Positions 2,562 to 58,624 of a stretch of DNA of 59,395 bases are shown piece after piece (positions within the stretch are counted from its first letter, which is position 1; each line of letters begins with the position of its first letter). The stretch is from a virus (taxonomy: Duplodnaviria; Caudoviricetes). Below the pieces are notes generated by a model. The model saw only the letters and a program-made list of their open reading frames with translations, had not been told where the DNA came from and did not search any database. The position numbers and the translations under genes were made by a program. The stretch spans positions 1-59,395 of IMG/VR virus record IMGVR_UViG_3300046693_000004; one strand, given 5' to 3'.

Positions 2562-2813
2562 TTATTCCTTCTTTTCAGGTGCTTCCTTCGGCACTGGAAT
2601 AGCATCAGGCGCCTTAGCTTGCTGTGCTGTAAATTGCTCGCGTAGCTTCTGCAACAGCGGTACAACATCTTTGTAGGGTTGGGTTTCCAATCCCTTAGCA
2701 ATTACATCCACTTCAGCAGGAGTAACCTTGAATGTAAATTCGCTAGGCTGCTGTGCATAAACAGGAACAACAAAAGCAGCAATGAAAGCGATAGGCCAGA
2801 TAAGTTTATGCAT
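2562..2813 (-). CDS. small secreted protein (Sec signal) with a helical-hairpin phage domain
   Basis: Start moved to MHKLIWPIAFIAAFVVPVYA|QQ after AAGGAA RBS; mature part FKVTPAEVDVIAKGLETQPYKDVVPLLQKLREQ. Confidence 0.7.
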   Translation of the reverse strand: MHKLIWPIAFIAAFVVPVYAQQPSEFTFKVTPAEVDVIAKGLETQPYKDVVPLLQKLREQFTAQQAKAPDAIPVPKEAPEKKE

Positions 2814-3690: not shown

Positions 3691-4008
3691 TTAACTCGCA
3701 AACTTAACTGATGCATCCATAGCAGGTGATGGCTTACTAACCCAATACTTCTCAACAGCGTCCTTAGCTTCCTTCAAACCAGTACCAGTAAGAGTACGGT
3801 AAGACTTAATTGCCTCAATCTTAAGACAGCCGCCATTCATAAGGCGCATAAGATTATTAATCTCTTCTTCAGTAGCAGAAACCTTAGCTGGCTCAAAACA
3901 AGCATTCACCAAATTACCAATATCTTCAACCTGATAGCTATCATAGCTATCATTCTTCCTGAGTGACGTAAGATACGAAATCAGGACTGCAAACTTAATA
4001 TTATTCAT
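3691..4008 (-). CDS. protein with a ribosomal L7/L12 C-terminal-like domain
   Basis: KIEAIKSYRTLTGTGLKEAKDAVE matches the bL12 CTD signature. Confidence 0.85.
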   Translation of the reverse strand: MNNIKFAVLISYLTSLRKNDSYDSYQVEDIGNLVNACFEPAKVSATEEEINNLMRLMNGGCLKIEAIKSYRTLTGTGLKEAKDAVEKYWVSKPSPAMDASVKFAS

Positions 4009-17717: not shown

Positions 17718-18029
17718 ATGAAAGATGACCACGAAGATTTGAAAGATAGAAGCACCACACCTTTCAATGAAACTAAGGAATATAAAGAAAAGATTGCTGA
17801 AGGCATGGAGGCAATTAATAGACGTAGCAGCGTTGCCCAACTTGTACCCACAAAATCAGATGCTGAATTAGCTAATGAGCTTAAGGAAAAGGTAGCCGAA
17901 GCTTATAAGCCTTTCCTTGAACTTTTAAATGAATATGATAAGCATGGCTTAAATGTGCAAGCTGGTGTCGGTAAGAACGCATTTGGTAAATATGCAATTG
18001 TGCAGTTGCAAGTGATTAAGGTGTTTTAG
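17718..18029 (+). CDS. hypothetical protein
   Basis: 103 aa, AAGGAA RBS. Confidence 0.65.
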   Translation: MKDDHEDLKDRSTTPFNETKEYKEKIAEGMEAINRRSSVAQLVPTKSDAELANELKEKVAEAYKPFLELLNEYDKHGLNVQAGVGKNAFGKYAIVQLQVIKVF

Positions 18030-18104
18030 CCGGTTTAGCTCAGTTGGTAGAGCAATTCATTTGTAACGAATAGGTCGCAGGTTCAATTCCTGCAATCGGC
18101 ACCA
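18029..18104 (+). tRNA. tRNA-Thr(TGT)
   Basis: GCCGGTT/AATCGGC acceptor, GCTC/GAGC D stem, anticodon loop TT-TGT-AA (A-C mismatch closing the stem), GCAGG-TTCAATT-CCTGC T arm, encoded CCA. Confidence 0.92.
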
Positions 18105-28017: not shown

Positions 28018-28253
28018 TGAATGTCCTTAAAGCCATGCAAGATACTACAAGAATTGCTTTTGAACGATGCATGAAAGGTGAGGGTAGTTTAAGCTATGAA
28101 CACATAGCTGGAATGCAGATTACAATGCAGGAATCGGAAATGTCTTATGGTAAAATGTGCCGCTGGTTAGGTTGGGCACAATGTGCCGTTGTAGCTTCAG
28201 GAGTAGCTACATTAGATGATATGAAGGCAATTAACACACTCAATAAAGCATAG
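28017..28253 (+). CDS. hypothetical protein
   Basis: 78 aa, K.CRWLGW.Q motif. Confidence 0.6.
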   Translation: MNVLKAMQDTTRIAFERCMKGEGSLSYEHIAGMQITMQESEMSYGKMCRWLGWAQCAVVASGVATLDDMKAINTLNKA

Positions 28254-28809
28254 CCATTCTACTACCCGGATTAACAATCGTAAATCCAGCAATGGAACGG
28301 TTATGAATCCTTATGCGTCCACCACCCGAATTAGCATCCCATGATTTCCAAATATTTCCGCTAGTGTGACTTACCAATTGAAATACATGACCACGCCTAG
28401 CAGCTACCATTCCCGGTGCCGCTTCAGCCCTAGGGAAGCGTAGCCAGTTAGCAGCTAGCCATAGATCGCGCTTGGCCGTGCCGAAAATTTTAATCGCCAG
28501 AGCACAGCCACAGAACCGATGGGGGCAACCCTGTGGCCTTCCCCCGATAACCTCACCCACGCCTCGCGCTACGCGCCTAGCGACCCATTGAACAGGGTCA
28601 GAGGCATAGGTTTCGCCAGCATAGCGGGGAACAGAAACCCGGTTCCTATGTTGGCGTTGTGCGTAATGCCGTACCTTCACTCTTTTGTGAGCATAAGAAA
28701 GTGCGCGAGCAGTTGAATAATTTTTTCGACTATCAAAATAACGATCATCAGATTGAGCATTGGCGTTAGTAATGAAAAGTAAGCTAATAATAACAAGCAA
28801 ATATTTCAT
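28240..28809 (-). CDS. secreted CHAP/NlpC-P60-like cysteine peptidase (putative cell-wall hydrolase)
   Basis: Sec signal MKYLL...ANA|Q; FCGC, LAANW, PGMVAARRGHV, DANSGG. Confidence 0.6.
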   Translation of the reverse strand: MKYLLVIISLLFITNANAQSDDRYFDSRKNYSTARALSYAHKRVKVRHYAQRQHRNRVSVPRYAGETYASDPVQWVARRVARGVGEVIGGRPQGCPHRFCGCALAIKIFGTAKRDLWLAANWLRFPRAEAAPGMVAARRGHVFQLVSHTSGNIWKSWDANSGGGRIRIHNRSIAGFTIVNPGSRMAMLY

Positions 28810-30022: not shown

Positions 30023-30373
30023 TCACGGCGAAGCTCCTGTTGCAATATCGATTACTTGTGCGCGATCTTCTTGATTAGTTCCGACTTTAGGCTGTTGTGG
30101 GTCAGTTGCCACTTGAGCCAATGTTTGATTAGCTTGGGTATTAACTTGAATCCTTTCAACACCCGGCATTGCAGCAACTTCTTTTACTAATGAGCCTTGT
30201 GTTGATAATGCTACGGTTATTGAGTTAAGAATCATATTGGTTAATCCGGCAACAGATATAATACTTTTTGTAATACCGGGACCAAATAAATCTGTAAGCT
30301 GCGCTGTTGATACCATCAGCACACTTAAGATTGCTCCACAAATCGCTAGAATTGTTTTTCCGTTTAAGTTCAT
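30023..30373 (-). CDS. holin-like membrane protein
   Basis: Start MNLNGK after AAGGA; two hydrophobic segments and a hydrophilic tail. Confidence 0.55.
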   Translation of the reverse strand: MNLNGKTILAICGAILSVLMVSTAQLTDLFGPGITKSIISVAGLTNMILNSITVALSTQGSLVKEVAAMPGVERIQVNTQANQTLAQVATDPQQPKVGTNQEDRAQVIDIATGASP

Positions 30374-30384
30374 AATATTTCCTT

Positions 30385-33240
30385 TTAACAAGTTGTAACT
30401 AATGCATTTCCAAGCATTCCGCAAGTATTAGTCGATCCTATACTATCTGCTGCACCCCAAGTACCAATTTTAGAAGAAGTCGGTTGCCAAATAGTTACTT
30501 TATCAACTGTTGATGCTAATAACAATGCTCTACCTGCTGTACATGTACCATTGCATTTAATTAAATTATTAGAAACACTAATACCAGAACTATCGTTAAT
30601 GGTAATTGAGTTGGTTGAGGAATTATTATCAGAGCTAATTGCATTATTAGAGTATATCATATTATAGTTAAAAGTACCTCCTGTATTAGAAGATACTAAT
30701 AAGGCTCTAGGTGCATTATCATTAATGTTCCCATCAATGATTAATTCAGTCATAATAAAAGTAGATTTACAAGCAGCCGCAGCAGCAGTACCAGCTAATG
30801 TAGTGACATAAACGCCAGCACCACCGGGAGTTCCGCTAGTTTGACTAGCAATTGTAGTACCTGCTGCTACACCAGTTCCTGTTACAGTTTGACCTAAAGC
30901 AGCAACACCACCAGTAACTATTGTACCTGTAACACCTGTTACAGTCATATTAGTACCGGATTGTGTACAAGTAAAACTAGCAGAAACGCTATCTAACTGA
31001 ATTGATGCTGTTGGAGTACCAGTTCCAACTAACAAATTATGGTGAATATGTAATTCTGAGGTTTGGCCTCCAATATTTAAATAAACAGGTCGCGGGGCAA
31101 ATATCTGATTATTAGTTAAATTAAAAGCACCACCTGATTGCCAAAGTAATCCAATAGTATTTGAAGTAATAGGTGCAAAAACCTGAAAATAATTATCCCG
31201 AATAATATTACCTCCGCTATCTGGTGCAAGAGGATTAGAAACTTTAACACCATAATTATAATATGGCGACACAGTGCTATTTTTAATTGTACCGTTTAAA
31301 GAATTAAGCAAATTAATTCCAGAAGTACCATTTGTTACATTAACGCTATCTATTACTCCACCAATATTATTATATGTATTGTTACCATATTGTATTCCAA
31401 CTACTCCAGTTGTAGAAAGAGAAGGATACGAGCAGGTTAAATTTTTAACATTAAGTGTTTTATTAGCACTAGATGGATTAAAGTTAATACAATTTATGGT
31501 ACTTGTAGTTGGAAAAATAAATGTAGAATTTGCTCCATCACCTTCAATTGATACATTTGTTTGTACATTAATAGCACTAGATGAAATAATACATCTACCA
31601 GAAAGTAAAAGTGTATTGCCGGGGCCAGTTAAGCTTTGTACATAAATAGAAGCGTTATTTAATTCTAAAGTATCATCATTTGAACCGTCACATACTGCAC
31701 CAAAAATACTTGCCGGAACGCGAGCTTGCTTAACTAAAATCCAACGCCCGCTACCTACACTTGGCGCTATACAAGACCCACCATCATCCGTACAAGATGC
31801 TCCACTATCCCAATAATAAATTGTGGATGGTGAATCACCATTTGCATAATAGCCTGTCCTAGTAGCCCAACTATATAACCCAGAACCCAAAGCCTTTAAA
31901 GCTGCATTTGTAGCAACTGTAATAGTTGGTGCAGTTACCGTAGGAGCTAAAGAAATGATATTACCAGTACATAAAAGTCCTGTTCCGCAAGCTATGTCAC
32001 CAACCATTAAACCCAATGAAGTAACACCGCTAGCATCTGCGCTATTTTGGTCAGGTGTAATCTTAATAATATAATTTAAAGTTTGTGTAGATTGAACAAT
32101 ACCAAAAGGTGTAGATATTCCACCTTGAGCAGTTCCAGTAAACGTACCTCCACCTCCTAAATGTGCTACTACATCAATTCCTGTAACAGCAACATTATTT
32201 GTAACAACAACTGTTGCCCCCACACCACCTCCACCAAATGAAGTACCTGCTGCACTATTAATAAGATTACCTGCATTATTTAACGTATGTGTGTGACCCG
32301 GATCACCTATGCTAATGCCTCCATTACCCACAGTTAAATTACCACCAAGATTACCAGCAGGAGTATAAGGAGGCAAATTAGATGCAAGTAATGTTTTAGT
32401 TTGTCCGCCACCTTTAGCACCTGTGGCGCTTGCAGTGACACCTAATCCAGTAGAAGTTAAATTAGTACAATCTGTGCCGCCCATGTTACATCTACCAGCA
32501 ACTACATAACCTCTTAAATCAGGAACATTAAATGTAGTAGAACCATTACCGTTCCCGTAAAGAAAAAATACTCCAGTTGTAGCTGTAGTTAAACTAGCAT
32601 TAGTATTCATAGTAACAGTAGTAGAAGTTTTAGAAAGAACAGTAGAGCCTGCTGCAATACAAGTAGTTTCTAAAACAGCACCAGCAGGAATTTGAGATGT
32701 ATCAGACAATCCTGTTAAAATAGGACTACCCGAAGTGCAATTAACATTCTGATTTAAAGTTACAGCAGTATAAAAAGCAGCATAAGTAATGCGTGAAATT
32801 TCTTGCCCATATGCGAATACATATTGATTAGGAGCAACCAAACCAGCCCAAGACTTGACAGTACCAACTAAATCACCATCGCCCGTACCTGTAGTAGAAC
32901 CACCTGTACCAGCAGAAGCGGTTACAGCATCAAAAATAGTAACATTTGCAGATGTGCGGACTAATTGACGGTAAGTACCATCACCATAAATAATAGCTCT
33001 TCCACCAGCATCTAAAATAACCGGATTAGTGTTAGGCGTAGTTTTAGCAGCATCCTGCCATGTCGTCTTAAAAGTAGTGGTCGAGGGGATATAGAAAAAA
33101 ACTTTACCGCTTGAAAGCGGATTGCCATTATTGTCTAGAAATTGGGTCTTACCCTGTGGCAATATAGCGGCGTTCTGCGCAAGAGCAGGATTTAATAAAA
33201 GAAAAGAAAAAAAGAGGAAGTTGATGATAGTTTTCATCAT
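30385..33240 (-). CDS. tailspike / tail fibre with N-terminal Sec signal peptide
   Basis: MMKTIINFLFFSFLLLNPALA|Q; podovirus attachment domain (QFLD.NGNPL..GK...NTNPVILD..GR); tail-collar motif (GNGSTTFNVPDLRG); GHTH; beta-helix start (FGAVCDGSNDDT); 18 Cys. Confidence 0.88.
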   Translation of the reverse strand: MMKTIINFLFFSFLLLNPALAQNAAILPQGKTQFLDNNGNPLSSGKVFFYIPSTTTFKTTWQDAAKTTPNTNPVILDAGGRAIIYGDGTYRQLVRTSANVTIFDAVTASAGTGGSTTGTGDGDLVGTVKSWAGLVAPNQYVFAYGQEISRITYAAFYTAVTLNQNVNCTSGSPILTGLSDTSQIPAGAVLETTCIAAGSTVLSKTSTTVTMNTNASLTTATTGVFFLYGNGNGSTTFNVPDLRGYVVAGRCNMGGTDCTNLTSTGLGVTASATGAKGGGQTKTLLASNLPPYTPAGNLGGNLTVGNGGISIGDPGHTHTLNNAGNLINSAAGTSFGGGGVGATVVVTNNVAVTGIDVVAHLGGGGTFTGTAQGGISTPFGIVQSTQTLNYIIKITPDQNSADASGVTSLGLMVGDIACGTGLLCTGNIISLAPTVTAPTITVATNAALKALGSGLYSWATRTGYYANGDSPSTIYYWDSGASCTDDGGSCIAPSVGSGRWILVKQARVPASIFGAVCDGSNDDTLELNNASIYVQSLTGPGNTLLLSGRCIISSSAINVQTNVSIEGDGANSTFIFPTTSTINCINFNPSSANKTLNVKNLTCSYPSLSTTGVVGIQYGNNTYNNIGGVIDSVNVTNGTSGINLLNSLNGTIKNSTVSPYYNYGVKVSNPLAPDSGGNIIRDNYFQVFAPITSNTIGLLWQSGGAFNLTNNQIFAPRPVYLNIGGQTSELHIHHNLLVGTGTPTASIQLDSVSASFTCTQSGTNMTVTGVTGTIVTGGVAALGQTVTGTGVAAGTTIASQTSGTPGGAGVYVTTLAGTAAAAACKSTFIMTELIIDGNINDNAPRALLVSSNTGGTFNYNMIYSNNAISSDNNSSTNSITINDSSGISVSNNLIKCNGTCTAGRALLLASTVDKVTIWQPTSSKIGTWGAADSIGSTNTCGMLGNALVTTC

Positions 33241-33331
33241 TTTGACTTTAACCTTAATCTTCTTTCACGAATATATAAACTGGCAAATAATTATATATAC
33301 TGTACCCACAACTATAATAATCTTCTTAGCT

Positions 33332-43440: not shown

Positions 43441-43887
43441 TCACTTATACCTTGTTAAAAACTGACTTTGTTCTGTAGTTCTACGTCCAATTATTTCCTT
43501 TGGAATCTTCCAATCCATAATGTGTTTAGCGCAGCCTGCTTTATCGCCAGCGTTAAACAATTTTATTGCTGTTGATTTAGCAAATTTTTCTACATTGAAT
43601 GTAATTGAAACGAATGCATCAAATTCATGATCTTCAGCAGGCACTTTTAATGCATTGTTTACAAGCCTTTCATATTTCACAAGATCATGCATTAGAATTT
43701 CATCACATTCCTGTGCAGTAAATTTTTTGTTCTTAGTGTCTTTATAGAAAGGTTGACCTGCATTATCAGTGTGACCAACGCAACAAGTCCATACGCCTTG
43801 TGTGTCTTTATACCATTTTAAAATCTTACCTTCTCTATCAGTAAGCCTTTGTCTACCTCTTAATGTCATCTTGTAATTTGTGGGCAT
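43441..43887 (-). CDS. endolysin, GH24 (T4/P21-type) lysozyme
   Basis: E-x8-D-x5-T triad: REGKILKWYKDTQGVWT; EFDAFVS.TFN; RR..E. Confidence 0.9.
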   Translation of the reverse strand: MPTNYKMTLRGRQRLTDREGKILKWYKDTQGVWTCCVGHTDNAGQPFYKDTKNKKFTAQECDEILMHDLVKYERLVNNALKVPAEDHEFDAFVSITFNVEKFAKSTAIKLFNAGDKAGCAKHIMDWKIPKEIIGRRTTEQSQFLTRYK

Positions 43888-45371: not shown

Positions 45372-45783
45372 TTGCATTTCCTTTCATTAAAGCAGCAGTG
45401 TCACCACTATTAACATGCTCAAATCTCTTAGTATTCACAATAATTGGAGGCTCTGGCTTACAGTCTAGAACCTTGGTCAAATCAATGTCAGGCAACTTAT
45501 TATCAAACAATGCTGTAGTGTCATCATCGTGAATACGCTCTTGCAACGCAGTCCAAATTTCATGCTTCATTGCAGGACTAGCGTTAGGTTGATTTAGAAT
45601 ATCGATTAAGTGCGATACTGCGCGCGGGATAAATTTAATGAAATTGTGAGCAGCGTAATACCTAGCTGATTTGTGTTTTGAAGTGAGACCTTGAGAACGT
45701 CCAACGTCGTAGAAGACGGCTGCAAATTCTAACGCGGTGCGTTCAATAAGTGTGGTGCGCGGGGAGGCGAGTTTTTTATTCAT
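45364..45783 (-). CDS. hypothetical protein
   Basis: 139 aa, coupled. Confidence 0.6.
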   Translation of the reverse strand: MNKKLASPRTTLIERTALEFAAVFYDVGRSQGLTSKHKSARYYAAHNFIKFIPRAVSHLIDILNQPNASPAMKHEIWTALQERIHDDDTTALFDNKLPDIDLTKVLDCKPEPPIIVNTKRFEHVNSGDTAALMKGNANG

Positions 45784-47831
45784 TCTGTATTCTCAAACGG
45801 GTTGTGGTCAACTTTAACGAGGCGCGGCTTGCGCTTGAATGGGTCATCTGACACCGGGGTAAAAGTTGGTACACCACTTGAGTACAACGGAAATCCCTTG
45901 TTAGCAATAGTTTCGCGCATTTGTGGTGTGATTTTGATTATTGGGATTTTATCACCTTTTAAGTTTTCAATCATTCTACCAACAGTTTCTTCTACCATTA
46001 AATCATGAATACCATCGCGTTCGCTTTCTAATGCTTTAACTTCGTTTGATTTAATAGCTTCGCTATTTCTACCGTTATTAGTCAGTTTGTTAATTTCTTT
46101 AGTATATTCGTCCCAAGCTTTAGCATATTTAGTTTGTGCCTCTTCATCCGGCCTAATTTCATTCTTTTTAATCTTGCTCTTATCTGCAGGTAAATTTTCA
46201 TACTCCACCTTCCCGCCCATCTTTTTAATTAACGCATTAGCTTTAGCTGGCAACATGGTGTCATAAAAGGCTTTCATGCCTTCACCGCCTACTTTGAGCT
46301 CAACTCCACTATATTCTATTGCTCCTGTTAAACCTTCCTTATTATCTTTTATTATTTTTTCAGCTAACTCTTTACCTACAGTATCAGCAAGCTTATCCTC
46401 TGTAACTCTATCTGCTAAAGCATTAGAGGTTTTATGACCCTTTTGAGTACCAGATATATTGTAACTTCCATCTTGCCGCTTAGTAGCTGTTATGTTGTCA
46501 TAATGCTTACTCAAATCATACCTAGCTGCCTGTGCCTCCCCCGGAGTCCAAGACACAGCATCATAACCCTTAGTAGCTGCCTCTGATAACACACGCTTTA
46601 ATGCAAGTTCATCCCAAGTCTTTTTAAATGGTGCATTGGGTACGCCACTTTTAGCATTCCTAACGGCCTCTTGAGCTAATCTGTATTCTTCCTGTAATGG
46701 AATTAATATGCGATCAATCTCAGGCATATCAGGAAATTCTTTGCGATTTCTTAATTCTGCTCTAGCATCTTCTAATTTAGTGTAAGCTGTATCTAATCTA
46801 CTTGTTAAAGCCTTTTCAGCTTCAGGATTAAAATATCCTTGCTTCCTCCCTGCCTGATGCCAATCACTTTGAATTTCTTCAACATGCAATGTCTTACCAA
46901 CTCCGGGTACTTCTCTATCATTCATACGAATATGGGCTAATACATTAGGTTCATCCCAATGGGAGGATTTGTAGTCAGGCATTCCTTTATATCTAGATAA
47001 TCCTTCGATATCTCTATTTTCAGGTTGAATTTTATTCATTATGTCAACCCATTCTGCTTTTTGTTCTGGTGTAGCTTCCCTACCCAAAGCCTCAAGTTCA
47101 CGCCTTCTAGCATCTAATTTTTCGGCCTTATTAGGTACATTTAAAGTTAACTCTCTGTAATTTTCTCCACCCGGCAATTGCCATTGAGAATAGCTATTTG
47201 TCTTACCTTGATAAGTTGGATTTAAATTTTCATTAAACTTAATCCCATTATCCGCAACATGCTGTGCTAATTGTTCCTTAGTTAACGGCTTATCGCCAAG
47301 TCCAGTTAAACTAAATTCCAATTCTTCAGGCTTAACACCCGGTTGATTTTTTAAGTAGCTAGTCCATTGCTCAGGAGTAGCTTTCTGTACCTTTGAACCT
47401 GCAATAGTATTTTCTAAGGTAGAATAAAACTTACCACCAATAGCACCTAGAGCACCTTTTTCAGCTAAAGGAATAGAAGACATTCCAGCTAAGCCAGCCA
47501 TGTCCTGTACACGTTCGATAACAGGCTGTGAGGTATGTCCGCTATCATCAGTGATAGGCACAGCACCAGAATAAACATCACCAGCAATGGTGCTACCGCT
47601 TCTAACCATTCGTTCTGGCCAAGTCTGATAGCGTTCCTCACCACCAGTGCCAAATAACTTATTACCAATCTTACTACCTGCACTTACCTGAAAATCATCA
47701 ATTAAGCGATTATCTGGTAATTCCGGTATTGTAGGCAAAGCTAATTCTTTACGCTTGATAGTGTTAGTTTCAGGATCAATAAAATAATCCTTTGGTGAAA
47801 CTCCAAACTGAGCATAAAGATCATCAGCCAT
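45780..47831 (-). CDS. EEIQSD-motif protein (domain usually embedded in large phage polyvalent/internal proteins)
   Basis: FYSTLE, GVKPEEL, GGENYRE, SHWDEPNVLAHIR, EEIQSDWHQ, PFKKTW, GMKAFYD. Confidence 0.65.
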   Translation of the reverse strand: MADDLYAQFGVSPKDYFIDPETNTIKRKELALPTIPELPDNRLIDDFQVSAGSKIGNKLFGTGGEERYQTWPERMVRSGSTIAGDVYSGAVPITDDSGHTSQPVIERVQDMAGLAGMSSIPLAEKGALGAIGGKFYSTLENTIAGSKVQKATPEQWTSYLKNQPGVKPEELEFSLTGLGDKPLTKEQLAQHVADNGIKFNENLNPTYQGKTNSYSQWQLPGGENYRELTLNVPNKAEKLDARRRELEALGREATPEQKAEWVDIMNKIQPENRDIEGLSRYKGMPDYKSSHWDEPNVLAHIRMNDREVPGVGKTLHVEEIQSDWHQAGRKQGYFNPEAEKALTSRLDTAYTKLEDARAELRNRKEFPDMPEIDRILIPLQEEYRLAQEAVRNAKSGVPNAPFKKTWDELALKRVLSEAATKGYDAVSWTPGEAQAARYDLSKHYDNITATKRQDGSYNISGTQKGHKTSNALADRVTEDKLADTVGKELAEKIIKDNKEGLTGAIEYSGVELKVGGEGMKAFYDTMLPAKANALIKKMGGKVEYENLPADKSKIKKNEIRPDEEAQTKYAKAWDEYTKEINKLTNNGRNSEAIKSNEVKALESERDGIHDLMVEETVGRMIENLKGDKIPIIKITPQMRETIANKGFPLYSSGVPTFTPVSDDPFKRKPRLVKVDHNPFENTE

Positions 47832-50408: not shown

Positions 50409-51104
50409 CTACCCTCCCATCCAATTCGTTCCAGGCCTAAATGCTGGCCTAATAACTCCAGCACCAACAGTTTTAATAGGCTTTTTCATTTGTGTTTCTG
50501 ACTTTAAGCTAGTCGCAAATGTTTGAAATGCATCCGCACCGTGGCTAAATTCATTGTGTAATGGTTCTCTACTAAATGTACCTGTATCCTCATCAACCTT
50601 ATATTGATAGTTACAGAGACATTGCCAACCATCGGCCGTTGCCTCTTCATCGAAATTACAAAGATCAAAGATAACACGAGCAGCCCGAATACCATGCACC
50701 TTTTTAGCAACACGAGGAACAATTTTCACCTTCCCCGGATAGCTATCGCGCAAGATTTTTGCAGTAGAGCGTCCTGCAAGCGTTTCATTATCACCATCAT
50801 GTGGCAAATAATGATAACCATAGTTATAACCCAATGACTGTAAGTGCTGAATATAAAAAGGTATTTTCTTTAATCGATCCTGATAAAAGGCAATTAGATT
50901 ATACTCAATACCAACCTGTTGTACAAACCAAATTGAAGTATAGTCATCATGACCCAAGTCCCAAAAAGTATGAACAACACGCGAAGAGTCATAACGAACT
51001 TCACCCCTACGCTTATCTTTTAAGACTTTCTTAATCTCTTCAGCGTAAATAGCACCATCTAAAACCTGTTTAGTGTTGCCTTCCCACACATGTAAATAAT
51101 CAAT
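50409..51104 (-). CDS. terminase large subunit, C-terminal nuclease part (separate frame)
   Basis: YLHVWEG, WDLG..D, LPHD, HGADAF. Confidence 0.85.
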   Translation of the reverse strand: MDYLHVWEGNTKQVLDGAIYAEEIKKVLKDKRRGEVRYDSSRVVHTFWDLGHDDYTSIWFVQQVGIEYNLIAFYQDRLKKIPFYIQHLQSLGYNYGYHYLPHDGDNETLAGRSTAKILRDSYPGKVKIVPRVAKKVHGIRAARVIFDLCNFDEEATADGWQCLCNYQYKVDEDTGTFSREPLHNEFSHGADAFQTFATSLKSETQMKKPIKTVGAGVIRPAFRPGTNWMGG

Positions 51105-51862
51105 ATCATTTCACGCCTTAGATCGGGCGGGAAAAATTTATTATCATCATGATTGACTTTAACAACAAATGCATATCGCTTGTTGCGAATATGCTGATAA
51201 CGTTGTTTCTCTAATGCAGTAAGATAATCAATATCAATGCTATTATCTAACTTCTCTTTAACAGAATAATAAAATTTTTGGTCTTCTAGGTCAACTTCAC
51301 CGTTAATAAAATCAGGTGCATATTGTTGACGTTTAATTACATAACGTTTATAAATTTCATCATCTTCTAATTCAGGATTAAATGTAAACCACAACTCAGG
51401 ACCAAGCCCAAATGGTCCGCCCATTCCAGCAGGATCATTTTCATGGCGACCACGAATAGTAGGGCCAAGTTTATCTAATGAAGTCTTAGAAATATTTCTA
51501 GCTTCATCAGTCCAGTTAATATCAATTTTAGCTAGTGATTTAATTGATTCAATGTTATGCCGTAAACCAGCAAATAAAAATTCAGAACCAGTGAGCTTAG
51601 AAACTATTCTAGTAGCTTGAATTTGAAAAGTATCTGCTAGACTAGCAGAGTTAATACAATTAACTAATGTTTGATAGGATGATTGCGCGAGTGAATTTTG
51701 AAATTCACGACTACATAAAATACGCAGCTTCTTATGATTAGCGAAAACAGGTAAGGCTGTAGAAGCACCTTCAGTCTTACCTGCTCCACGACCACCATAG
51801 ATAATTTTTAAGCGTGCTGGTTCAAATAAGAATGCAAGCTTTCTGAGAAATTCGATTGCCAT
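51059..51862 (-). CDS. terminase large subunit, N-terminal ATPase part (PBSX-type)
   Basis: YGGRGAGKT, REFQNS, SIKS, WTDEA, PTIR, FNP, VN..DN..FP. Confidence 0.88.
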   Translation of the reverse strand: MAIEFLRKLAFLFEPARLKIIYGGRGAGKTEGASTALPVFANHKKLRILCSREFQNSLAQSSYQTLVNCINSASLADTFQIQATRIVSKLTGSEFLFAGLRHNIESIKSLAKIDINWTDEARNISKTSLDKLGPTIRGRHENDPAGMGGPFGLGPELWFTFNPELEDDEIYKRYVIKRQQYAPDFINGEVDLEDQKFYYSVKEKLDNSIDIDYLTALEKQRYQHIRNKRYAFVVKVNHDDNKFFPPDLRREMILIIYMCGKATLNRF

Positions 51863-51928: not shown

Positions 51929-54355
51929 TCATGGAGGAATAACCACACCTTGATTAGTCAGCATTTGTATTGTCACTCCAGGACTGCCAGCAGTATTGGC
52001 ACTGTACACCGGACCGCTGTTGGCGGCCTTGCCTACCCACAGAGCAAAACCGGGGGCGGTCAGATCATCCAAGCTCTTCGCGCCAGTTACCGCTGACTGC
52101 GTCACGGTGCGTGTCCCGGCGATCATTTCGTTTATGACAGCCCGAGGAAAGGTCGACACGCTCCCATCCGACTGTTTAATCATGCTCCAGTTGTCCAAGA
52201 CAGACAGAGACCATGAAAGCGCCCCCGCTCCAGCGTAGACCGGGTTTGGGGTCGCTGTTAGAGACGAGAACTTGCCCCATAGCAAAAATGTAGACGCGGG
52301 GGTAGTGCCAGCAGCACCGCCCAAATAAGTAGCCGTGTGGCATGACCACAATGGCAAATTGGCAGTGCACCCCGACAACGAAACAGCGTTCTCGTTCCCG
52401 GAGCTATTGACGAAGGTAGCTTGGGGTGCGGGGTGCGGCCGGATGCTAACCGGAGTTATCCCGGCCGGAAATCCGCTCGTTGCGCTCGTTTGGATGTACG
52501 TATTATTAAAGTCCTGTGTCACATCCGTGACTTGAAACAGCCCGGCAGTCTGGCCTGCTATGGCTATAAACGAATTCGCCCCCGGAACGGCCCAACGCGC
52601 TTGGCTTTCGAGTATCCCATAACTCTGCCAGTTCGGGATTGTGATGATCCCGGTCGCACCAAATGTCCAATTCGAAGTTACAGGATGATCGTACCCCCCT
52701 GACGCTATGTCACTCGCAATCACGCAACTGGTGCAAGATACCGAATCCGACCGACCATAAGCATACGCGCCGGGAGACAACCCTGTGCCGGTACTACCCG
52801 TGTCCTGTATCGTGACGTTGGTGCCAACAAATACCTTTGGTGTTCCAAAAATATGCCCGGTAACGGTCGTGCCGGATATGTTGACCCGGTTGATCGACGA
52901 GCTTTGAAAATCAAGAGTTCGGAAGGTGCCGCCCGTAATGTTGATCGTGCCTATCATCTTGTCGATTTCGACAACGCAATTTGAGGCGGTCACGTTCGTG
53001 TAGTAGAAAGTCTCATTCTGCGATGGGATAGAGCATAGGCCGCCTATGAGAGTCGCGTCGGTGAATTTGATCGTCCTGCCATTAGTCGCGAGCGAATTAT
53101 TTGTGGTGTCAGTGATGGTGACACCCTGATAGTCCTGCACCGTCTCCCATGAGTCTTGCAGAAGGTACAAGGTTGCGGGACCACCGTCGTCAACCTCGAA
53201 CTCATTCCCGGTACTAAACTGCGGCCAAGTCGATTTGTATGTGATCGCCAACGGAGCATCGAAACAAACCTGATGCGTGCCTGAATCCGAACTGACGACC
53301 GTCCTGTATTCAAAGAAATGCTGGTTGCTCGGAAATCCGTAAGGGGTGCCCCATATATACTGGATGTTATATCCAGTCATCTGCACCTTGGCGCCGACCG
53401 GGAACAGCGAGGTTCGATCCCCGCCAACAGTGCCGCCACTCGTGTATGTACCCGCAAATAGCGAATGAAAAAGATCAAGGTGCGTGCCGTCGACCTTGCG
53501 GGACCACCAGAGCCCGTTCGTGCTATTGTCCAAGCCACCTGTAGCGACAACGCCCTGAACGAATACCGCGTCTCCATCCGTGTACCCAGTCGTGGAGTTG
53601 ACTGTGAGCCGTACAACGCCGGTTCCGGTTAATGCTTGGCTGGAAAGTGTTTGCGTTGCATTGACAGTGTATGTGCCTGCACCCCCACTGCCGCTCCCGA
53701 ACGCTGTGATGGTCGTGTACGTAATGGGCGTGTTGACGCCGATGGTGGAACCTGACCCTCGAACGATTTGGCCGATCGCAATCGTGCCCGTAACCGATGA
53801 AGCGGTTAGCGTCGTTCCGGAAATGCCTCCGGTGAACGAGGCGTCCCCAACACTGTTGGAAACATTGGAGACCGTCGCAAGCGGCTGCGTGATCAGCGTG
53901 ACGCAGCTATCGCCCGCCGTTGCCGTTGCCGTTCGGACGCTATGTTTGTTGTCCTGATATTGCCCGCGACCGCCGAGCCGTAGCGGAGTTGAGCTGGTGT
54001 TCGTGAGCGCCCCGCCGGAATATCCAGAATAAATGAAATTCTTGATGCCATCGAAGATAAAGAAATTGCCGGATGTTAGTGTCGTTAGTTTGCAATTAAG
54101 CCCATCCGCCAACAGCTTGACTTGGCTCGATCCCTGATTAGCCAGCGCCCACGTCCTGAACGACACAAACGAAGCTGTGTCGTCGGCCACGCCATTGCAC
54201 GTAGCCAATGGAGACGTACAAGGCCCCGATGCTCCCACCGTAACCCCCGTGACAGGGTTGCATGTGATCTGTGGCGTAACAACAGCCGAACCGTGTGTCC
54301 ATCCTGCAACGACCAATAGTATGAAAATAAGAAAGGGTAGTTTTTTCACACTCAC
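51929..54355 (-). CDS. secreted tailspike-like beta protein (808 aa)
   Basis: Signal-like N-terminus KKLPFLIFILLVVAG; CNGVADDT beta-helix start; module shared with the tailspike; FCCH-like insert; 12 Cys; high GC. Confidence 0.7.
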   Translation of the reverse strand: MSVKKLPFLIFILLVVAGWTHGSAVVTPQITCNPVTGVTVGASGPCTSPLATCNGVADDTASFVSFRTWALANQGSSQVKLLADGLNCKLTTLTSGNFFIFDGIKNFIYSGYSGGALTNTSSTPLRLGGRGQYQDNKHSVRTATATAGDSCVTLITQPLATVSNVSNSVGDASFTGGISGTTLTASSVTGTIAIGQIVRGSGSTIGVNTPITYTTITAFGSGSGGAGTYTVNATQTLSSQALTGTGVVRLTVNSTTGYTDGDAVFVQGVVATGGLDNSTNGLWWSRKVDGTHLDLFHSLFAGTYTSGGTVGGDRTSLFPVGAKVQMTGYNIQYIWGTPYGFPSNQHFFEYRTVVSSDSGTHQVCFDAPLAITYKSTWPQFSTGNEFEVDDGGPATLYLLQDSWETVQDYQGVTITDTTNNSLATNGRTIKFTDATLIGGLCSIPSQNETFYYTNVTASNCVVEIDKMIGTINITGGTFRTLDFQSSSINRVNISGTTVTGHIFGTPKVFVGTNVTIQDTGSTGTGLSPGAYAYGRSDSVSCTSCVIASDIASGGYDHPVTSNWTFGATGIITIPNWQSYGILESQARWAVPGANSFIAIAGQTAGLFQVTDVTQDFNNTYIQTSATSGFPAGITPVSIRPHPAPQATFVNSSGNENAVSLSGCTANLPLWSCHTATYLGGAAGTTPASTFLLWGKFSSLTATPNPVYAGAGALSWSLSVLDNWSMIKQSDGSVSTFPRAVINEMIAGTRTVTQSAVTGAKSLDDLTAPGFALWVGKAANSGPVYSANTAGSPGVTIQMLTNQGVVIPP

Positions 54356-55275
54356 CCGCCAATAATCTTGCCGCCACCGCCACCAATCGCTGGTGGTGTT
54401 ATAGTCGCGGAATTACCTCCGAAATTAAACGAATTGGTAACGGTCGGTTGCGTGCCGGTGAAGATAATGTTGTGCAAACCACTCCACTGGATCGTTGAAC
54501 CAGACGCAGATACTATCGTGGCAACTCCGCTATTCACACTGCCTGGGGCGATTAGAATCTGATTTGTCGACGTTCCGACCCAATTAAAGGCGTTTGTGAC
54601 TGTTTGCGTCCCGCCTTGAGGAAAGAAAACTGAATTAGGGGCACCGATATTGAGCGTAGCGAATGTGTTGTTGCTAAAAACATTGATCGCTCCACCGCTA
54701 CTGTTCGCGCTAAACGTAACGGTATTGTAGGTTTTTCCACCCCCGTCAAATTGAAGAAAGCCAGTTCCGACACCTGTATAAGCGATTGTCGATCCATTAG
54801 CATTCAGTGTTAGCGTACCGCCGCCTGCGCTGGCATCCCATAATGTGCCGTTGTTCGAATTGTCGGAAAGAGTCCACGTTCCATTTCCAAGATTGACCGT
54901 TTTAGTACCAGACCCGCTACATCCCATTGAAGGACTGGCAGTCAACGTAACGTTTTTATTATTTGCGCTCCAGTCCAGGGTGCCACCAAACGTCCCACAT
55001 ACAATCCTCTGAAGGTTAATAAGATCAATCGTAACAGTGACGGTCCCTCCTCCCGAGGCGCTGTCAAATGTTGCGATATCTCCAGTATTCATCGGAATAC
55101 TACTAGTAGCTGCACAGGTTCCGGGAACTCCACCAGTAGAACTAGCCCATGACGAAATATTAATAGCTGTAAAACTACCTGTTCCACCTACCCAAAAACA
55201 GTTAGCAGCCGCGTTTGCTTTAGTAATAAATAAAGATACAAGAAAAAGAAGTGCAACACGCATAATAATTTTCAT
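54352..55275 (-). CDS. secreted beta-helix / fibre-like protein
   Basis: MKIIMRVALLFLVSLFITKANA|A; FWVGGTG...W.SSTGG motif; 4 Cys. Confidence 0.7.
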   Translation of the reverse strand: MKIIMRVALLFLVSLFITKANAAANCFWVGGTGSFTAINISSWASSTGGVPGTCAATSSIPMNTGDIATFDSASGGGTVTVTIDLINLQRIVCGTFGGTLDWSANNKNVTLTASPSMGCSGSGTKTVNLGNGTWTLSDNSNNGTLWDASAGGGTLTLNANGSTIAYTGVGTGFLQFDGGGKTYNTVTFSANSSGGAINVFSNNTFATLNIGAPNSVFFPQGGTQTVTNAFNWVGTSTNQILIAPGSVNSGVATIVSASGSTIQWSGLHNIIFTGTQPTVTNSFNFGGNSATITPPAIGGGGGKIIGG

Positions 55276-56183
55276 TGCTGCACCCATGCAATATGTCCTG
55301 CTAGCGGTGTTGCTGCCGAAGTGATTAAGCATAAATCTACATTAGTTCCTGCTGTAGCAGCTACAGCGAAACCACCATTACCCATAGAAACACCACCATT
55401 TGCTGCAAAATTAGGACCATTAGCAGCAGTAGTACCGCCAACTACACCAGCAGTGCCACTACCACAAGTACCGCCTGTACCTTCCACTATACCCACATTA
55501 TCAGCAGCAGCCGAAGTTAGAAGCATATAACAAACATATGTCTTTTTTGACGCCGCTGGAGCTACAATGCGCGTTGTAGTGACTGTAGTAATACTAATTG
55601 GTGTATAAGTTTTAGCTACAGTCTGACAAGGATCGCCAATTTGACCAACTAAATTGCCACCAACATTTAAACCATTATAGCTTGCATTAGCAGGAACAGC
55701 AGCGGCCGTAGCACCAACCCCAACTTGTGAGGATGTAAGAGCTACTAAATTTGTAGTACCGGGCGTAGTTTGATCTATTCCAACTTTACCAATAATAGCA
55801 GAACCGGCAGTTAATGAACCAATAGCATTAGTTCCTGCTGGAATAGCACCAGCAGTGTTAGAAATAATAGTATCTAATTTAGTTAATTCAGAAGTCTGGT
55901 TAGCTGCTGTAGCGACACCTGTAACTGTAATAGTGCCGCTTACTGGAACAACTGTACCACTTGCAATACCTTGAATAGTAATCACATTAGTATTAGCAGT
56001 ACCAGCAGTACCTAAAATACTAGCTCCTGTAGAGCCTACTAAATTAACACCCTGAGATTGAACACCAGCACCAATATCGATTGTACGCATCGTAACTCCC
56101 GTACCGGGAGTTAAAATGACTGCATTATCTGCTGCTTGTGCTAATGTGGGTAAAAGGAATAATAAAGCTAATAGCTTTTTCAT
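55272..56183 (-). CDS. secreted Gly/Thr-rich protein with C-terminal beta-sandwich-like domain
   Basis: MKKLLALLFLLPTLAQA|A; 4 Cys; C-domain paralogous to 56336-56776. Confidence 0.75.
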   Translation of the reverse strand: MKKLLALLFLLPTLAQAADNAVILTPGTGVTMRTIDIGAGVQSQGVNLVGSTGASILGTAGTANTNVITIQGIASGTVVPVSGTITVTGVATAANQTSELTKLDTIISNTAGAIPAGTNAIGSLTAGSAIIGKVGIDQTTPGTTNLVALTSSQVGVGATAAAVPANASYNGLNVGGNLVGQIGDPCQTVAKTYTPISITTVTTTRIVAPAASKKTYVCYMLLTSAAADNVGIVEGTGGTCGSGTAGVVGGTTAANGPNFAANGGVSMGNGGFAVAATAGTNVDLCLITSAATPLAGHIAWVQQ

Positions 56184-56351
56184 TTAAATTACCGTGATAT
56201 ATTGGCTGTTACAAGCATCTGTAAAATCTAATGAATTAGAACAACTAGGACCAACACCAGTAGCACCTTTACCAGCTTTTAAAAGTGGTAGAAATCCTGC
56301 AAAAGCAGCAGTTGAAAGAATTACAAAAGCAATGATTAAAATTGTGCGTAT
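56184..56351 (-). CDS. small secreted peptide, no ATG start
   Basis: (I)RTILIIAFVILSTAAFA|G...CSNSLDFTDACNSQY; fills the gap between coupled genes; start inferred at ATA. Confidence 0.55.
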   Translation of the reverse strand: MRTILIIAFVILSTAAFAGFLPLLKAGKGATGVGPSCSNSLDFTDACNSQYITVI

Positions 56352-56776
56352 GACACAGCACCGGACATTTGAACAGCAGCCGAAGTAGTAGCGCAAAGAG
56401 CATTACCTTGAGGAACTAAAATAACAATCCCCATACCATCACCCTTAGAAATACCTGCCTGAGCAGTTAGGGGATATGGTCCAGTTAAGCTAGTAGTACC
56501 TGTACCGCAATTAGTACCAGTGCCGTAAACTAATGTAAAATTACCTGTACCTCCTGAAATAACATCCCAAGAGGTAACAAAAATAGTTTTACCATTAACA
56601 AGAGCAACTAATTGAGTAGTTGTAGCTGTAGAAATATTAATCGGAACTGAAGTTGCTGCTTGCACAGCAGGAACACAATTAGTGCCATTAGTAGTATAAC
56701 AACTAGCTGTTCTACTTTGTGCTAAGGCAATTGTGGGCAAGAGTAATGCCCACAATAAGATTAGGAGCTTTTTCAT
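56336..56776 (-). CDS. secreted beta-sandwich-like protein
   Basis: MKKLLILLWALLLPTIALA|Q; 4 Cys. Confidence 0.75.
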   Translation of the reverse strand: MKKLLILLWALLLPTIALAQSRTASCYTTNGTNCVPAVQAATSVPINISTATTTQLVALVNGKTIFVTSWDVISGGTGNFTLVYGTGTNCGTGTTSLTGPYPLTAQAGISKGDGMGIVILVPQGNALCATTSAAVQMSGAVSYAQF

Positions 56777-57315
56777 TGAAGTGGCGCCAAGCAAACGGTA
56801 ACAGTAACGCCAACAGATGATTGAATTGCATCAGCAAAATCAACAGCTAATCGATTACCAGCCGCAAGATTAACAACACCAGCCGTAGTAACTAATGCAC
56901 CTGTTTGAGTAGTGTTGGCTGTAGCATTTAAGTTAAAAGCAGTAGATAACAAATCAGTACCAGCACCGGGAGCGGCAGTACCAGTATCTTTAGTTACCTG
57001 AAGTGTAGAGGTTCCGCCAGCAGCTACAGAATGAATTTCACTGATACTTATTACTCGCATTGCACGAGTAGCAATAAAAAATACTTGATCTACCGCAGTA
57101 GTAGGTGCAGCGGCAGTAGCTCCTGTAAAATAATAAGTGGGGCAAATAAGGCCACCATTAATAGCGTCAACCGTTTTATTAAGCTGATTGCCATTAGGGC
57201 TAATAAAACCATTTGGATATTTAAGAAGCAACTGAGAACTAGCATTAGCCTGTTGAGCATGGCTTAAGCTAGGAAAACAAGCCATCATTAAAGCCGCAAG
57301 CAATAATTTTTTCAT
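56773..57315 (-). CDS. secreted Ala/Thr-rich (decoration-like) protein
   Basis: MKKLLLAALMMACFPSLSHA|Q; 2 Cys in the mature part. Confidence 0.75.
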   Translation of the reverse strand: MKKLLLAALMMACFPSLSHAQQANASSQLLLKYPNGFISPNGNQLNKTVDAINGGLICPTYYFTGATAAAPTTAVDQVFFIATRAMRVISISEIHSVAAGGTSTLQVTKDTGTAAPGAGTDLLSTAFNLNATANTTQTGALVTTAGVVNLAAGNRLAVDFADAIQSSVGVTVTVCLAPLQ

Positions 57316-57333
57316 AATAATTTGTTCCTATAT

Positions 57334-57360
57334 AAAAATAAAAGGGGCTAAAAGCCCCTT
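57334..57360 (-). terminator. Rho-independent terminator after the first secreted-protein gene
   Basis: AAGGGGCT/AGCCCCTT stem followed by a T-rich run on the minus strand. Confidence 0.7.
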
Positions 57361-57362
57361 AA

Positions 57363-57944
57363 TTACTGTGTACGGTGCCAAATGCCAACAGTGGCGCTTG
57401 TCTTACTATAAATATATCCAAAACAAGAGGCGGCACCAGTAACAACAGGAACAAGCATTGCAGTTGGTGCTGTAGTGCTAAAAGTATTGCCAGTGCCAGC
57501 GCCGCTAGTAAGAGTAGTGACAATCTGAGTACCGCAGATGCCAATACGTTGACCATTAAGCATGGTGCTTGAAGCAGCAGGAAGATTAATGGTTAATGCT
57601 GCAATAGTACCAGCAGGAGTAACAATAAGTTGGCGCGTTTGAGCATCAACTGTAATAGTATCACCAGTAACAGGAGTAGTAACAATAAGCTTACCGCCAC
57701 CTAATGACTGAATATCAATTTTAGCACTCTGCACACCACTTGCGCCAATATTTGTATCAACTGGAAGAGTTTCGTTACCAGTTAATGCAGGACCGGCAGG
57801 AACAGTCAAAGTACAAACGTTATTGTTGGTACTGGCGCAATAAGACGGTCCATCAATCTGCGGAAAATTAGGCGCAAAAGTCTGAGCCATTGCGAGAGAA
57901 GGAAATGCAGCAACAGCAAGAACTAAAAGTAATTTCTTAAGCAT
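57363..57944 (-). CDS. secreted decoration-like protein
   Basis: MLKKLLLVLAVAAFPSLAMA|Q; PAGTIAALTINLP...W.R pattern; 4 Cys. Confidence 0.75.
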   Translation of the reverse strand: MLKKLLLVLAVAAFPSLAMAQTFAPNFPQIDGPSYCASTNNNVCTLTVPAGPALTGNETLPVDTNIGASGVQSAKIDIQSLGGGKLIVTTPVTGDTITVDAQTRQLIVTPAGTIAALTINLPAASSTMLNGQRIGICGTQIVTTLTSGAGTGNTFSTTAPTAMLVPVVTGAASCFGYIYSKTSATVGIWHRTQ

Positions 57945-57965: not shown

Positions 57966-58544
57966 TTATCCGACTAGTTTAAGTTTAACAGGTGAATTTT
58001 CTAATATATCATCAACTTTAGATTCATGCTCAATGGTTTTAACCACTTCTTTCTTATCAGGTTCCACAAACTTAATTTCCATAAACCTAGGTTGATTGTT
58101 TATTGTTGTACTGATGGAGTCTTTAGCAATAAATCCTTGTATGTCTGCGTATAAGCGAAGTGCTGCAAGCCTATCTTTTGCTTCAGCAGCATATCGGTTT
58201 TCGCCATTAAAAATAATGCGCTCTTCTGAAAACTCCAGCAGCTTACGAGACAATGCAGCCTTGTCAAGCAATTCTTCCTTGACAGCAGTAATCGCTGAAT
58301 ATTCTTCTTTTGCTTTAATAACTACAGGGTCTTCAAGCCATTTGGTCGATGCCCACAATGCTTTATTAGTTTCTTTGCCAAATATTGAGCAAGCCGCCTC
58401 GAAACTATTCTTGAAATTTTGAGCTAATGCTATACCAAATGCTTGTTTTAATTCTTCATCATCTTTCCAAGATGGAATAACATTCGTAACTTGCGGGGGA
58501 GTTACGATAAAATTAGTGATAAATGTGTGCCAGTTAGGAACCAT
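57966..58544 (-). CDS. terminase small subunit (putative)
   Basis: AKDRLAALRLYADIQGFI helix followed by a beta tail (MEIKFV), typical of TerS; upstream of the terL region. Confidence 0.6.
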   Translation of the reverse strand: MVPNWHTFITNFIVTPPQVTNVIPSWKDDEELKQAFGIALAQNFKNSFEAACSIFGKETNKALWASTKWLEDPVVIKAKEEYSAITAVKEELLDKAALSRKLLEFSEERIIFNGENRYAAEAKDRLAALRLYADIQGFIAKDSISTTINNQPRFMEIKFVEPDKKEVVKTIEHESKVDDILENSPVKLKLVG

Positions 58545-58624
58545 ATACCCACACATAGCAAAGCCCGTTGGCACATTCAAGCACCAACGGGCCTCATTTC
58601 AGCTACCGGACTCCCATGCAGCAG

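Follow-up and report, generated by a model that had tools for sequence, protein, structure and literature searches.

The tailspikes of phages P22, Sf6, and HK620 fold in the cytoplasm and carry no leader, and P22 spikes, the last part to be added, can make spikeless heads active in vitro. A second type of tailspike is represented by PDB entries 7eeq_A, 9vyg, and 9vyh, by gp26 of Rhodoferax phage P26218, and by the proteins of Pseudomonas phage PAE2 and Ralstonia phage P4282 (the latter named 'bacteriolytic protein'). Entry 7EEQ is attributed to cyanophage Pam1 (PMC13730344). These Pam1-type tailspikes are also leaderless and start at their attachment domain. Here we analyze the tailspike gene of an uncultured podovirus, contained in the complete 59,395-bp virus record IMGVR_UViG_3300046693_000004 (the whole record is called the window below). 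Its product combines a Pam1-type attachment domain with a predicted N-terminal export signal and with 18 cysteines that fall into nine consecutive pairs.

The window protein shares with the Pam1-type tailspikes a homologous attachment domain (44–52% identity by tblastn), a place after the ejection genes, and a variable C-terminal module. The difference is at the N-terminus and in the cysteines: the Pam1-type proteins begin with the domain itself, and the window family has an additional leader of ~21–24 residues and an even number of cysteines. The tailspikes of P22, Sf6, and HK620 share the right-handed β-helix (Foldseek E 3e-5 to 1e-4, template-modeling score 0.38–0.45), and a P22-like structural module (portal, Ad3, and Hc3) is common to the window phage as well. 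However, the window protein does not match the P22 gp9 sequence families: Pfam hits at E ≤ 1 are Collar, phage_tail_N, and GSIII_N only, and no P22 PDB chain is hit. An earlier sequence-only reading of this DNA called the protein a canonical tailspike; because a gp9 match is lacking, the word is valid for architecture and position, not for sequence family.

Exported proteins of comparable layout occur in cellular systems. WceF of Pantoea stewartii is described as an exported, trimeric, tailspike-like β-helix with a capsid-binding-like N-terminal domain (PMC7949094). As described there, it is a chromosomally encoded enzyme of the bacterium, leaves the cytoplasm in folded form by twin-arginine translocation (Tat), and is no part of a virion, whereas the window gene is phage-borne, encodes a Sec-type leader, and belongs to a virion module. 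The MAT fibers of Bdellovibrio are described as having a signal peptide, a conserved β-rich N-terminal domain of ~130 aa, a long trimeric fiber, and swappable tips (PMC10769870). They are surface adhesins of a cellular predator, likened to the window protein by layout, and the two Bdellovibrionales loci in our set (L023 and L024) are leaderless.

Filamentous phages are put together at the membrane and leave the cell by extrusion. Their virion proteins are reported to be exported before assembly (PMC4823517); these coat proteins and the Sec-dependent phage endolysins use the host Sec system, as proposed here for a tailspike. An esterase with a signal peptide has been reported in Xanthomonas phage PBR31. 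Full-text literature searches, with supplementary tables outside their scope, did not turn up any description of a Sec signal on a tailed-phage tailspike or tail fiber.

The leader and the attachment domain

Residues 34–111 of the precursor match residues 12–93 of 7eeq_A ('Tailspike head-binding domain') when the single sequence is searched (E 7e-6). A 39-member family profile matches 7eeq_A with E 8e-8, and also the tail spike chains 9vyg and 9vyh from their residue 13–15. The domain is highly conserved: many of its residues are the same in all 39 sequences. By sequence it is of the cyanophage Pam1 type, not of the P22 gp9 type. The geometry of the match leaves ~22 extra N-terminal residues in the precursor. 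In Pam1-type tailspikes the domain lies at the extreme N-terminus; in the window protein it does so in the predicted mature form only.

The extra residues have the design of a Sec signal peptide for signal peptidase I (SPI). The n-region is MMK, with Lys3 as the charged residue; the 13-residue core (residues 4–16) is rich in Phe, Leu, and Ile, with a best 10-residue mean Kyte–Doolittle (KD) hydropathy of 2.35; and the c-region N-P-A-L-A is followed by Gln22. Residues 1–21 contain neither a Cys nor an RR, and the residue at +1 is Gln, so that no lipobox Cys is present. A lipoprotein signal and a Tat signal were therefore rejected, as neither fits the leader sequence. A signal-anchor-release (SAR) domain is a weakly hydrophobic, Gly/Ala/Ser-rich N-terminal helix that stays uncleaved; the window leader instead has its F/L/I-rich core and an A-x-A site.

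The design is conserved although the sequence is not. A search of 5.8 billion clustered proteins gives 468 matches at E ≤ 1e-3, of which 120 are listed; the N-termini of these 120 vary in sequence, and every full-length one has the same design. A regular-expression anchor places 118 of the 120, and 117 could be assessed. The hydrophobic core reaches a mean KD of at least 1.8 in 112 of the 117. The remaining five with a weak core, and one without a site, start inside the leader and resemble truncated gene calls. Plain alignment columns, counted with no assumption of an A-x-A site, give the same picture: K or R at the n-region column in 87 of 109 homologs, A or V at −3 and A at −1 in 83 of 120 each, and Q at +1 in 96 of 120. 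The eight core columns have a mean KD of 2.8–3.6, whereas the frequency of their top residue is just 0.31–0.62. In addition, an exhaustive HMMER search with residues 1–430 against 1.84 billion representatives finds 554 proteins at E ≤ 1e-30 (14,310 at E ≤ 1e-3, the latter including other Collar and head-binding proteins). Among 74 new representatives, the core is present in 62 of the 63 that can be anchored, and a leader is visible by eye in each of the 11 that cannot. On these sequences, the leader is a family trait.

Leaderless relatives were collected as DNA loci with the head-binding domain. A scan of genome contigs with the single protein finds no relative, and a scan with the alignment of homologs finds 42 loci; together with 80 kept of 557 loci confirmed in IMG/VR contigs, the set comprises 122. 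Sorting of the upstream frames by eye gives 11 loci of the window family, 16 other leader-bearing loci, 85 leaderless loci, and 10 ambiguous loci, which were dropped (L005, L008, L028, L035, L042, L086, L099, L115, L116, and L118).

The leaderless proteins, among them those of Rhodoferax phage P26218, Pseudomonas phage PAE2, and Ralstonia phage P4282, begin M-(T)-A-(T/S)-(I/L)-L-P, 3–5 residues before the conserved Pro28. In the leader-bearing proteins, the predicted cut lies 4–6 residues before the same Pro. In one leader group the predicted cut yields A-T-L-L-P, which is identical to the leaderless M-A-T-L-L-P after removal of Met. The predicted cut site thus coincides with the leaderless start, and cleavage would restore the native N-terminus of the attachment domain, a coincidence that would be hard to explain if the leader were retained. 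Taken together, the sequence features support Sec export well, and actual export and cleavage are what we infer from them.

The conserved module that follows contains a Collar domain (Pfam PF07484, 29.8 bits against a gathering cut-off of 24) and is 45–79% identical within the family; phrog_8763 ('tail protein') spans residues 108–400. The C-terminal module is variable. No Pfam β-helix family matches the query itself, whereas PF13229 or PF12708 is precomputed on homologs P0004, P0034, and P0121. An AlphaFold2 model of residues 431–951, made from an 11-row alignment, is a right-handed β-helix with a mean predicted local distance difference test (pLDDT) score of 75.3. With this model Foldseek returns 76 matches at E ≤ 1e-3, including AlgE6 (5lw3, E 1e-6), polygalacturonases, and the tailspikes of HK620 (4avz, 3e-5), Sf6 (2vbe, 1e-4), Dettilon, and Depo32. 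Scores in the ESM Atlas reach 0.82, under its own lead threshold. The Collar and β-helix domains of the sequence-only reading are thus recovered, and the modeled β-helix is probably the receptor-binding or depolymerase part.

A small domain is inserted in the β-helix between Cys758 and Cys824 and is missing as a block in homolog P0125. Separately, ten proteins that carry PF11863 (DUF3383) or PF27114, or are named baseplate J-like, match 14–22% of the residue 431–951 query with 44–64% identity. These local matches suggest a small shuffled domain, probably the insert.

Cysteines and their link to the leader

All 18 cysteines are in the mature part and none is in the leader (positions in Table 1). 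When consecutive cysteines are taken as pairs, the gaps within pairs sum to 179 residues; randomly placed cysteines would give 441 ± 103 (P = 0.003, 100,000 draws). The pairs are also kept, lost, or moved jointly. The first three were followed through the 120 listed homologs, and those in the C-terminal module through seven proteins that share the β-helix module (Table 1). Cys168 and Cys194, present in every listed homolog, are missing from the collar protein of the leaderless Bordetella phage PHB04. Near-neighbor pairing is well supported by these patterns, and the pairs would form disulfides if the chain were oxidized.

The β-helix module with the same cysteine pairs also occurs in five proteins of 529–714 aa (P0121–P0125), which have another, short N-terminus with its own hydrophobic leader and no head-binding domain.

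The number of mature cysteines is even in 117 of 117 proteins of the first set (3 of 120 unanchored) and in 68 of the 73 that could be anchored in the new set (1 of 74 unanchored), that is, in 185 of 190; the anchor used for these counts is independent of the cleavage call. Parity at the DNA loci was taken from complete, distinct proteins. The 25 leader-bearing loci comprise 22 with even and 3 with odd counts, and none with zero. In contrast, the 72 leaderless loci comprise 35 with even counts, ten of which have no cysteine, and 37 with odd counts. For non-zero counts, parity depends on the leader with Fisher p = 3.7e-5. The leader-bearing groups are also richer in cysteine, with medians of 1.49 and 1.10 per 100 aa against 0.80 in the leaderless group (Mann–Whitney p = 0.0013). 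Among the proteins encoded in the window, cysteine density is 1.74 per 100 aa for ten that are predicted to be exported and 1.04 for all others, and the structural and ejection proteins encoded upstream of the tailspike have 0–3 Cys each, mixed parity, and no leader.

The observation made in the sequence-only reading is borne out by these results, and its interpretation is supported in part. The leader ending A-L-A/Q does precede the attachment domain and is conserved in the family, with the domain match starting at residue 34, and the nine consecutive pairs are not a product of chance placement. The comparison it proposed, of cysteine gain with signal presence against leaderless homologs, has a positive outcome (185/190 even against 35/72). 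Its claim of a cleavable export signal draws support from the conserved leader design, from the leaderless N-terminus that the cut would regenerate, and from the covariation and parity of the cysteines. As a pattern in sequences, the observation holds: it goes far beyond chance and extends through a large clade.

Distribution, proposed assembly route, and rivals

Four relatives reached through the loci are complete genomes of 57–60 kb with terminal repeats and with portals 56–59% identical to that of the window, indicating that the trait belongs to a clade of uncultured podoviruses. Leader-bearing forms also occur in contigs labeled Methylobacterium, Hyphomicrobiales, Acidobacteria, and others. 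In the cultured strain Methylobacterium persicinum NBRC 103628, a leader-bearing tail fiber with the same head-binding domain and 2 Cys (L006, 9950–11299) comes after Ad3, Hc3, and a lysozyme-bearing protein of 882 aa in a P22-like prophage.

The tree built for the head-binding domain, from 103 rows and 88 columns, is poorly resolved. The leader state changes nine times on it by parsimony, and at least two of the changes are forced by well-supported branches. When the labels are shuffled the average is 24.6 changes, and 0 of 500 shuffles is as low as 9. The domain tree thus points to gain or loss of the leader at least twice.

The reading we consider best, and a fairly probable one, is that the tailspike is exported by Sec, cleaved by signal peptidase, folded in the periplasm with the help of disulfides, and docked on finished heads at lysis. 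The host Sec system would carry the precursor over the inner membrane, and SPI would cut between residues 21 and 22, after A-L-A21, exposing Gln22; the mature N-terminus would then equal that of the leaderless tailspikes within one residue. The host periplasmic disulfide system would oxidize the chain, giving about nine short-range disulfides, and the chain would fold in the periplasm into head-binding domain, collar, and β-helix, presumably as a trimer. DNA-filled heads with tail hub and needle would be made spikeless in the cytoplasm, and lysis would join the two compartments so that the spikes could dock. Periplasmic retention, docking after rupture of the inner membrane, and the trimer state are inferred; since P22 spikes can be added in vitro, docking after lysis appears feasible. 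Pfam scans of 20 early/middle proteins of the window find no phage-encoded Dsb or signal peptidase.

Two gains from periplasmic maturation can be envisaged. Spikes stabilized by disulfides might be obtained that are beyond the reach of a reducing cytoplasm. In addition, a glycan-cutting enzyme would be placed where nascent surface polysaccharide passes, and it could strip receptors from the dying cell. The tailspike may also be secreted further or have a second, soluble role.

The wider proposal is that virion building is split between two compartments throughout a widespread clade of tailed phages: heads and hub would be made in the cytoplasm, spikes would be exported by Sec, cut by the host signal peptidase, and locked by disulfides in the periplasm, and the two would be joined at lysis only. 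If the leader was gained or lost several times, the cytoplasmic and periplasmic routes would be interchangeable for the same organelle. To this proposal as a whole we would give an even chance.

Several points weigh against periplasmic maturation. For every family member, export, cleavage, disulfides, and virion presence rest on sequence. The cleavage-site calls come from a heuristic that partly presupposes A-x-A, and for this reason the plain alignment columns were counted too. Odd cysteine counts are found in 5 of 73 new family proteins and in 3 of 25 leader-bearing loci, and the PAE2 protein has 12 Cys yet is leaderless. A collection of 50,697 phage genomes contains no record that shares more than short domains with the window, and no cultured relative. 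Docking after lysis must compete with dilution. The clear endolysin (43441–43887; phrog_7, E 2e-31) has no leader, which would fit a putative holin that opens the inner membrane. Finally, an in-frame TTG at codon 27, missed in the sequence-only reading, which saw no in-frame Met nearby, could yield a leaderless form in this phage.

These points leave room for other explanations. The exported protein could be mainly or only a soluble periplasmic or secreted enzyme that degrades polysaccharide, with a minor fraction at most on the particle. By removing the receptor or capsule of an infected cell, it would block superinfection or make release easier. Comparable to it is Pantoea WceF, described as a Tat-exported bacterial β-helix that keeps a capsid-binding-like N-terminal domain (PMC7949094), and the β-helix module is also found in leader-bearing P0121–P0125 with no head-binding domain. 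In the window protein, however, the head-binding domain is strongly conserved, the gene has the position of a tailspike gene, and no other spike gene is present. These indirect indications suggest that the protein is a real virion component. The enzyme and spike roles could moreover coexist, and we regard a purely or mainly soluble enzyme as unlikely.

Proposals that leave the N-terminus in place, or the leader unused, fare worse. An uncleaved N-terminus would hold the protein at the outer face of the inner membrane until lysis, as an anchor or as a SAR-like releasable signal-anchor. Sequence alone does not prove cleavage, and some phage proteins (SAR endolysins) do use uncleaved Sec-dependent anchors. 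Yet the core is rich in F/L/I, not in G/A/S, and a Pro and then a small-x-small site, which is conserved, come after it; moreover, the predicted cut lies exactly at the leaderless start, which an anchor would not require. We therefore consider retention of the leader very unlikely. Least credible of all is a leader that is not used, whether translation starts at the TTG or the whole chain folds in the cytoplasm, with ordinary assembly and oxidation of the cysteines after release. It would be in keeping with the weak AAGG motif upstream, with the TTG itself, and with a start-type codon in the same stretch in 14 of 27 leader loci. Against it, 6 of the 11 family loci and 13 of the 27 leader loci lack any ATG, GTG, or TTG among the seven codons from +1 to Pro, indicating that a downstream start is not a conserved feature, and no Shine–Dalgarno-like motif precedes the codon-27 TTG. 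The upstream frame is open, the n-h-c design is present in every full-length N-terminus of the 120 listed homologs and in the further representatives, and cysteine parity follows the presence of the leader.

Tailed-phage virions are taught as cytoplasmic assemblies. Periplasmic maturation of a tailspike, if true, would add a dependence on host Sec, signal peptidase, and Dsb, and heads without spikes would have to exist as an intermediate in the cell. It would also account for how a spike can carry many disulfides that stabilize it outside the cell, and such spikes and depolymerases would need periplasmic or oxidizing expression to fold. Annotation pipelines that count a signal peptide against a virion role would misfile them. 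The idea is testable now, in the P22-like prophage of a cultured Methylobacterium, which encodes a leader-bearing tail fiber.

Gene order and other features of the window

The features of the tailspike gene and its surroundings are collected in Table 1.

Table 1 Positions of the tailspike gene, its parts, and adjacent elements in the window
Feature	Position	Strand	Remarks
Tailspike precursor open reading frame (ORF), 951 aa including leader	30385..33240	minus	stop codon 30385–30387
AAGG Shine–Dalgarno-like motif, weak	33252..33255	minus	11 nt upstream of first ATG
Predicted Sec/SPI signal peptide, residues 1–21	33178..33240	minus	
Gln22, predicted first mature residue	33175..33177	minus	Q in 96/120 aligned homologs
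In-frame TTG, codon 27, possible internal start	33160..33162	minus	unconserved
Head-binding (tail-attachment) domain, residues 22–112	32905..33177	minus	PDB 7eeq, 9vyg, 9vyh; tblastn to leaderless phage tailspikes
Conserved module with Collar domain, residues 113–430	31951..32904	minus	PF07484, phrog_8763
Cys168–Cys194	32659..32739	minus	both in 120/120 homologs
Cys251–Cys258	32467..32490	minus	both 8, neither 112, single 0 of 120
Cys418–Cys424	31969..31989	minus	both 118, neither 1, gap 1 of 120
Variable C-terminal right-handed β-helix module, residues 431–951	30388..31950	minus	
Cys483–Cys490	31771..31794	minus	partner at 493 in P0123, 477 in P0124
Cys517–Cys550	31591..31692	minus	jointly lost in P0121
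Cys584–Cys603	31432..31491	minus	jointly lost in P0123, P0125; P0125 has shifted pair 580/608
Small domain inserted in β-helix, residues 755–827	30760..30978	minus	bracketed by Cys758, Cys824
Cys758–Cys824	30769..30969	minus	jointly lost with insert in P0125; 758+788 in P0124
Cys896–Cys900	30541..30555	minus	in 7/7 C-terminal homologs
Cys940–Cys951	30388..30423	minus	in 7/7 C-terminal homologs; Cys951 is the final residue
Next gene, 117 aa, two hydrophobic stretches (holin-like, unproven)	30023..30376	minus	

On the same strand, upstream of the tailspike, lie the genes for the portal, scaffold, major head protein, Ad3 adaptor, Hc3, a needle-like protein, and an ejection protein (PHROG E 1e-92 to 8e-7). 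Two large proteins without family matches follow the ejection protein, and the tailspike is the last large gene of this P22-like structural module. By gene order, after the structural and ejection genes, the ORF is therefore at the place where P22-like podoviruses keep their tailspike. Of 12 related loci, 5 have a homolog of the 697-aa upstream protein in the stretch ahead of the tailspike match. The N-terminal domain of the tailspike has one match in the whole genome, this gene itself, and no second receptor-binding candidate with a tail-attachment domain was found in the genome.

The ORF opens with ATG-ATG, 91 nt from the preceding gene. Shine–Dalgarno-like motifs precede 28 of the 55 window genes, against 12.5% of random positions. 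The ATG of the next gene is 8 nt past the tailspike stop, behind an AAGGA motif, and this spacing suggests co-transcription of the two genes. The 117-aa product has no PHROG match. Promoter-like and terminator-like sites near the tailspike gene are at the level of shuffled sequence (15 against 12.6, and 2 against 2.2, respectively). The genes after the tailspike were considered as a proven lysis cassette and rejected as such, because they have no PHROG support and the sole clear endolysin is at 43441–43887. That endolysin gene, on the minus strand, lies between the scaffold and major head genes, away from the membrane-protein genes that follow the tailspike.

Gln is at +1 in six of nine predicted SPI leaders of the window (2562–2810, 28240–28809, 30385–33240, 56336–56776, 56773–57315, and 57363–57944). 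Gln at +1 of SPI leaders is described as the Bacteroidota 'Q-rule' (PMC5837995), and Q-rule proteins of unknown function have been reported in Porphyromonas phages. A Bacteroidota host would fit this pattern, but the Shine–Dalgarno-like motifs and the nearest cultured portal, from a Pseudomonas phage (47% identity), conflict with it.

Other genes of the window also encode leaders. Six consecutive genes on the minus strand (51929–57944; 808, ~307, 303, ~146, 180, and 193 aa) have signal-peptide-like leaders and even numbers of mature Cys. They lie between the small terminase gene (57966–58580) and the large terminase gene, have no Pfam match, and have a partial homolog in just one of five related genomes; the 808-aa gene is in a stretch of 55% GC in a genome of 39% GC. 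A 189-aa protein (28240–28809, minus) has a leader ending N-A-N-A/Q and three Cys; two of these are near each other, and a region containing His comes after them. The protein matches neither Pfam nor PHROG and, judged from its sequence, could be an exported hydrolase.

The large terminase (50409–51862, minus) appears as two ORFs that overlap by 31 nt, 51059–51862 (phrog_3717 and phrog_2) and 50409–51089 (phrog_2472); a split gene, a frameshift, and a sequencing error are possible causes. A 683-aa protein between portal and scaffold (45780–47831, minus) contains an endolysin-like stretch (phrog_7348, E 4e-13) and may be a virion-borne wall hydrolase. A 105-aa protein (3691–4008, minus) matches the C-terminal domain of ribosomal L7/L12 (PF00542, 29.7 bits, cut-off 25.9). 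The window also encodes tRNA-Leu(taa) at 500–576 and tRNA-Thr(tgt) at 18029–18104.

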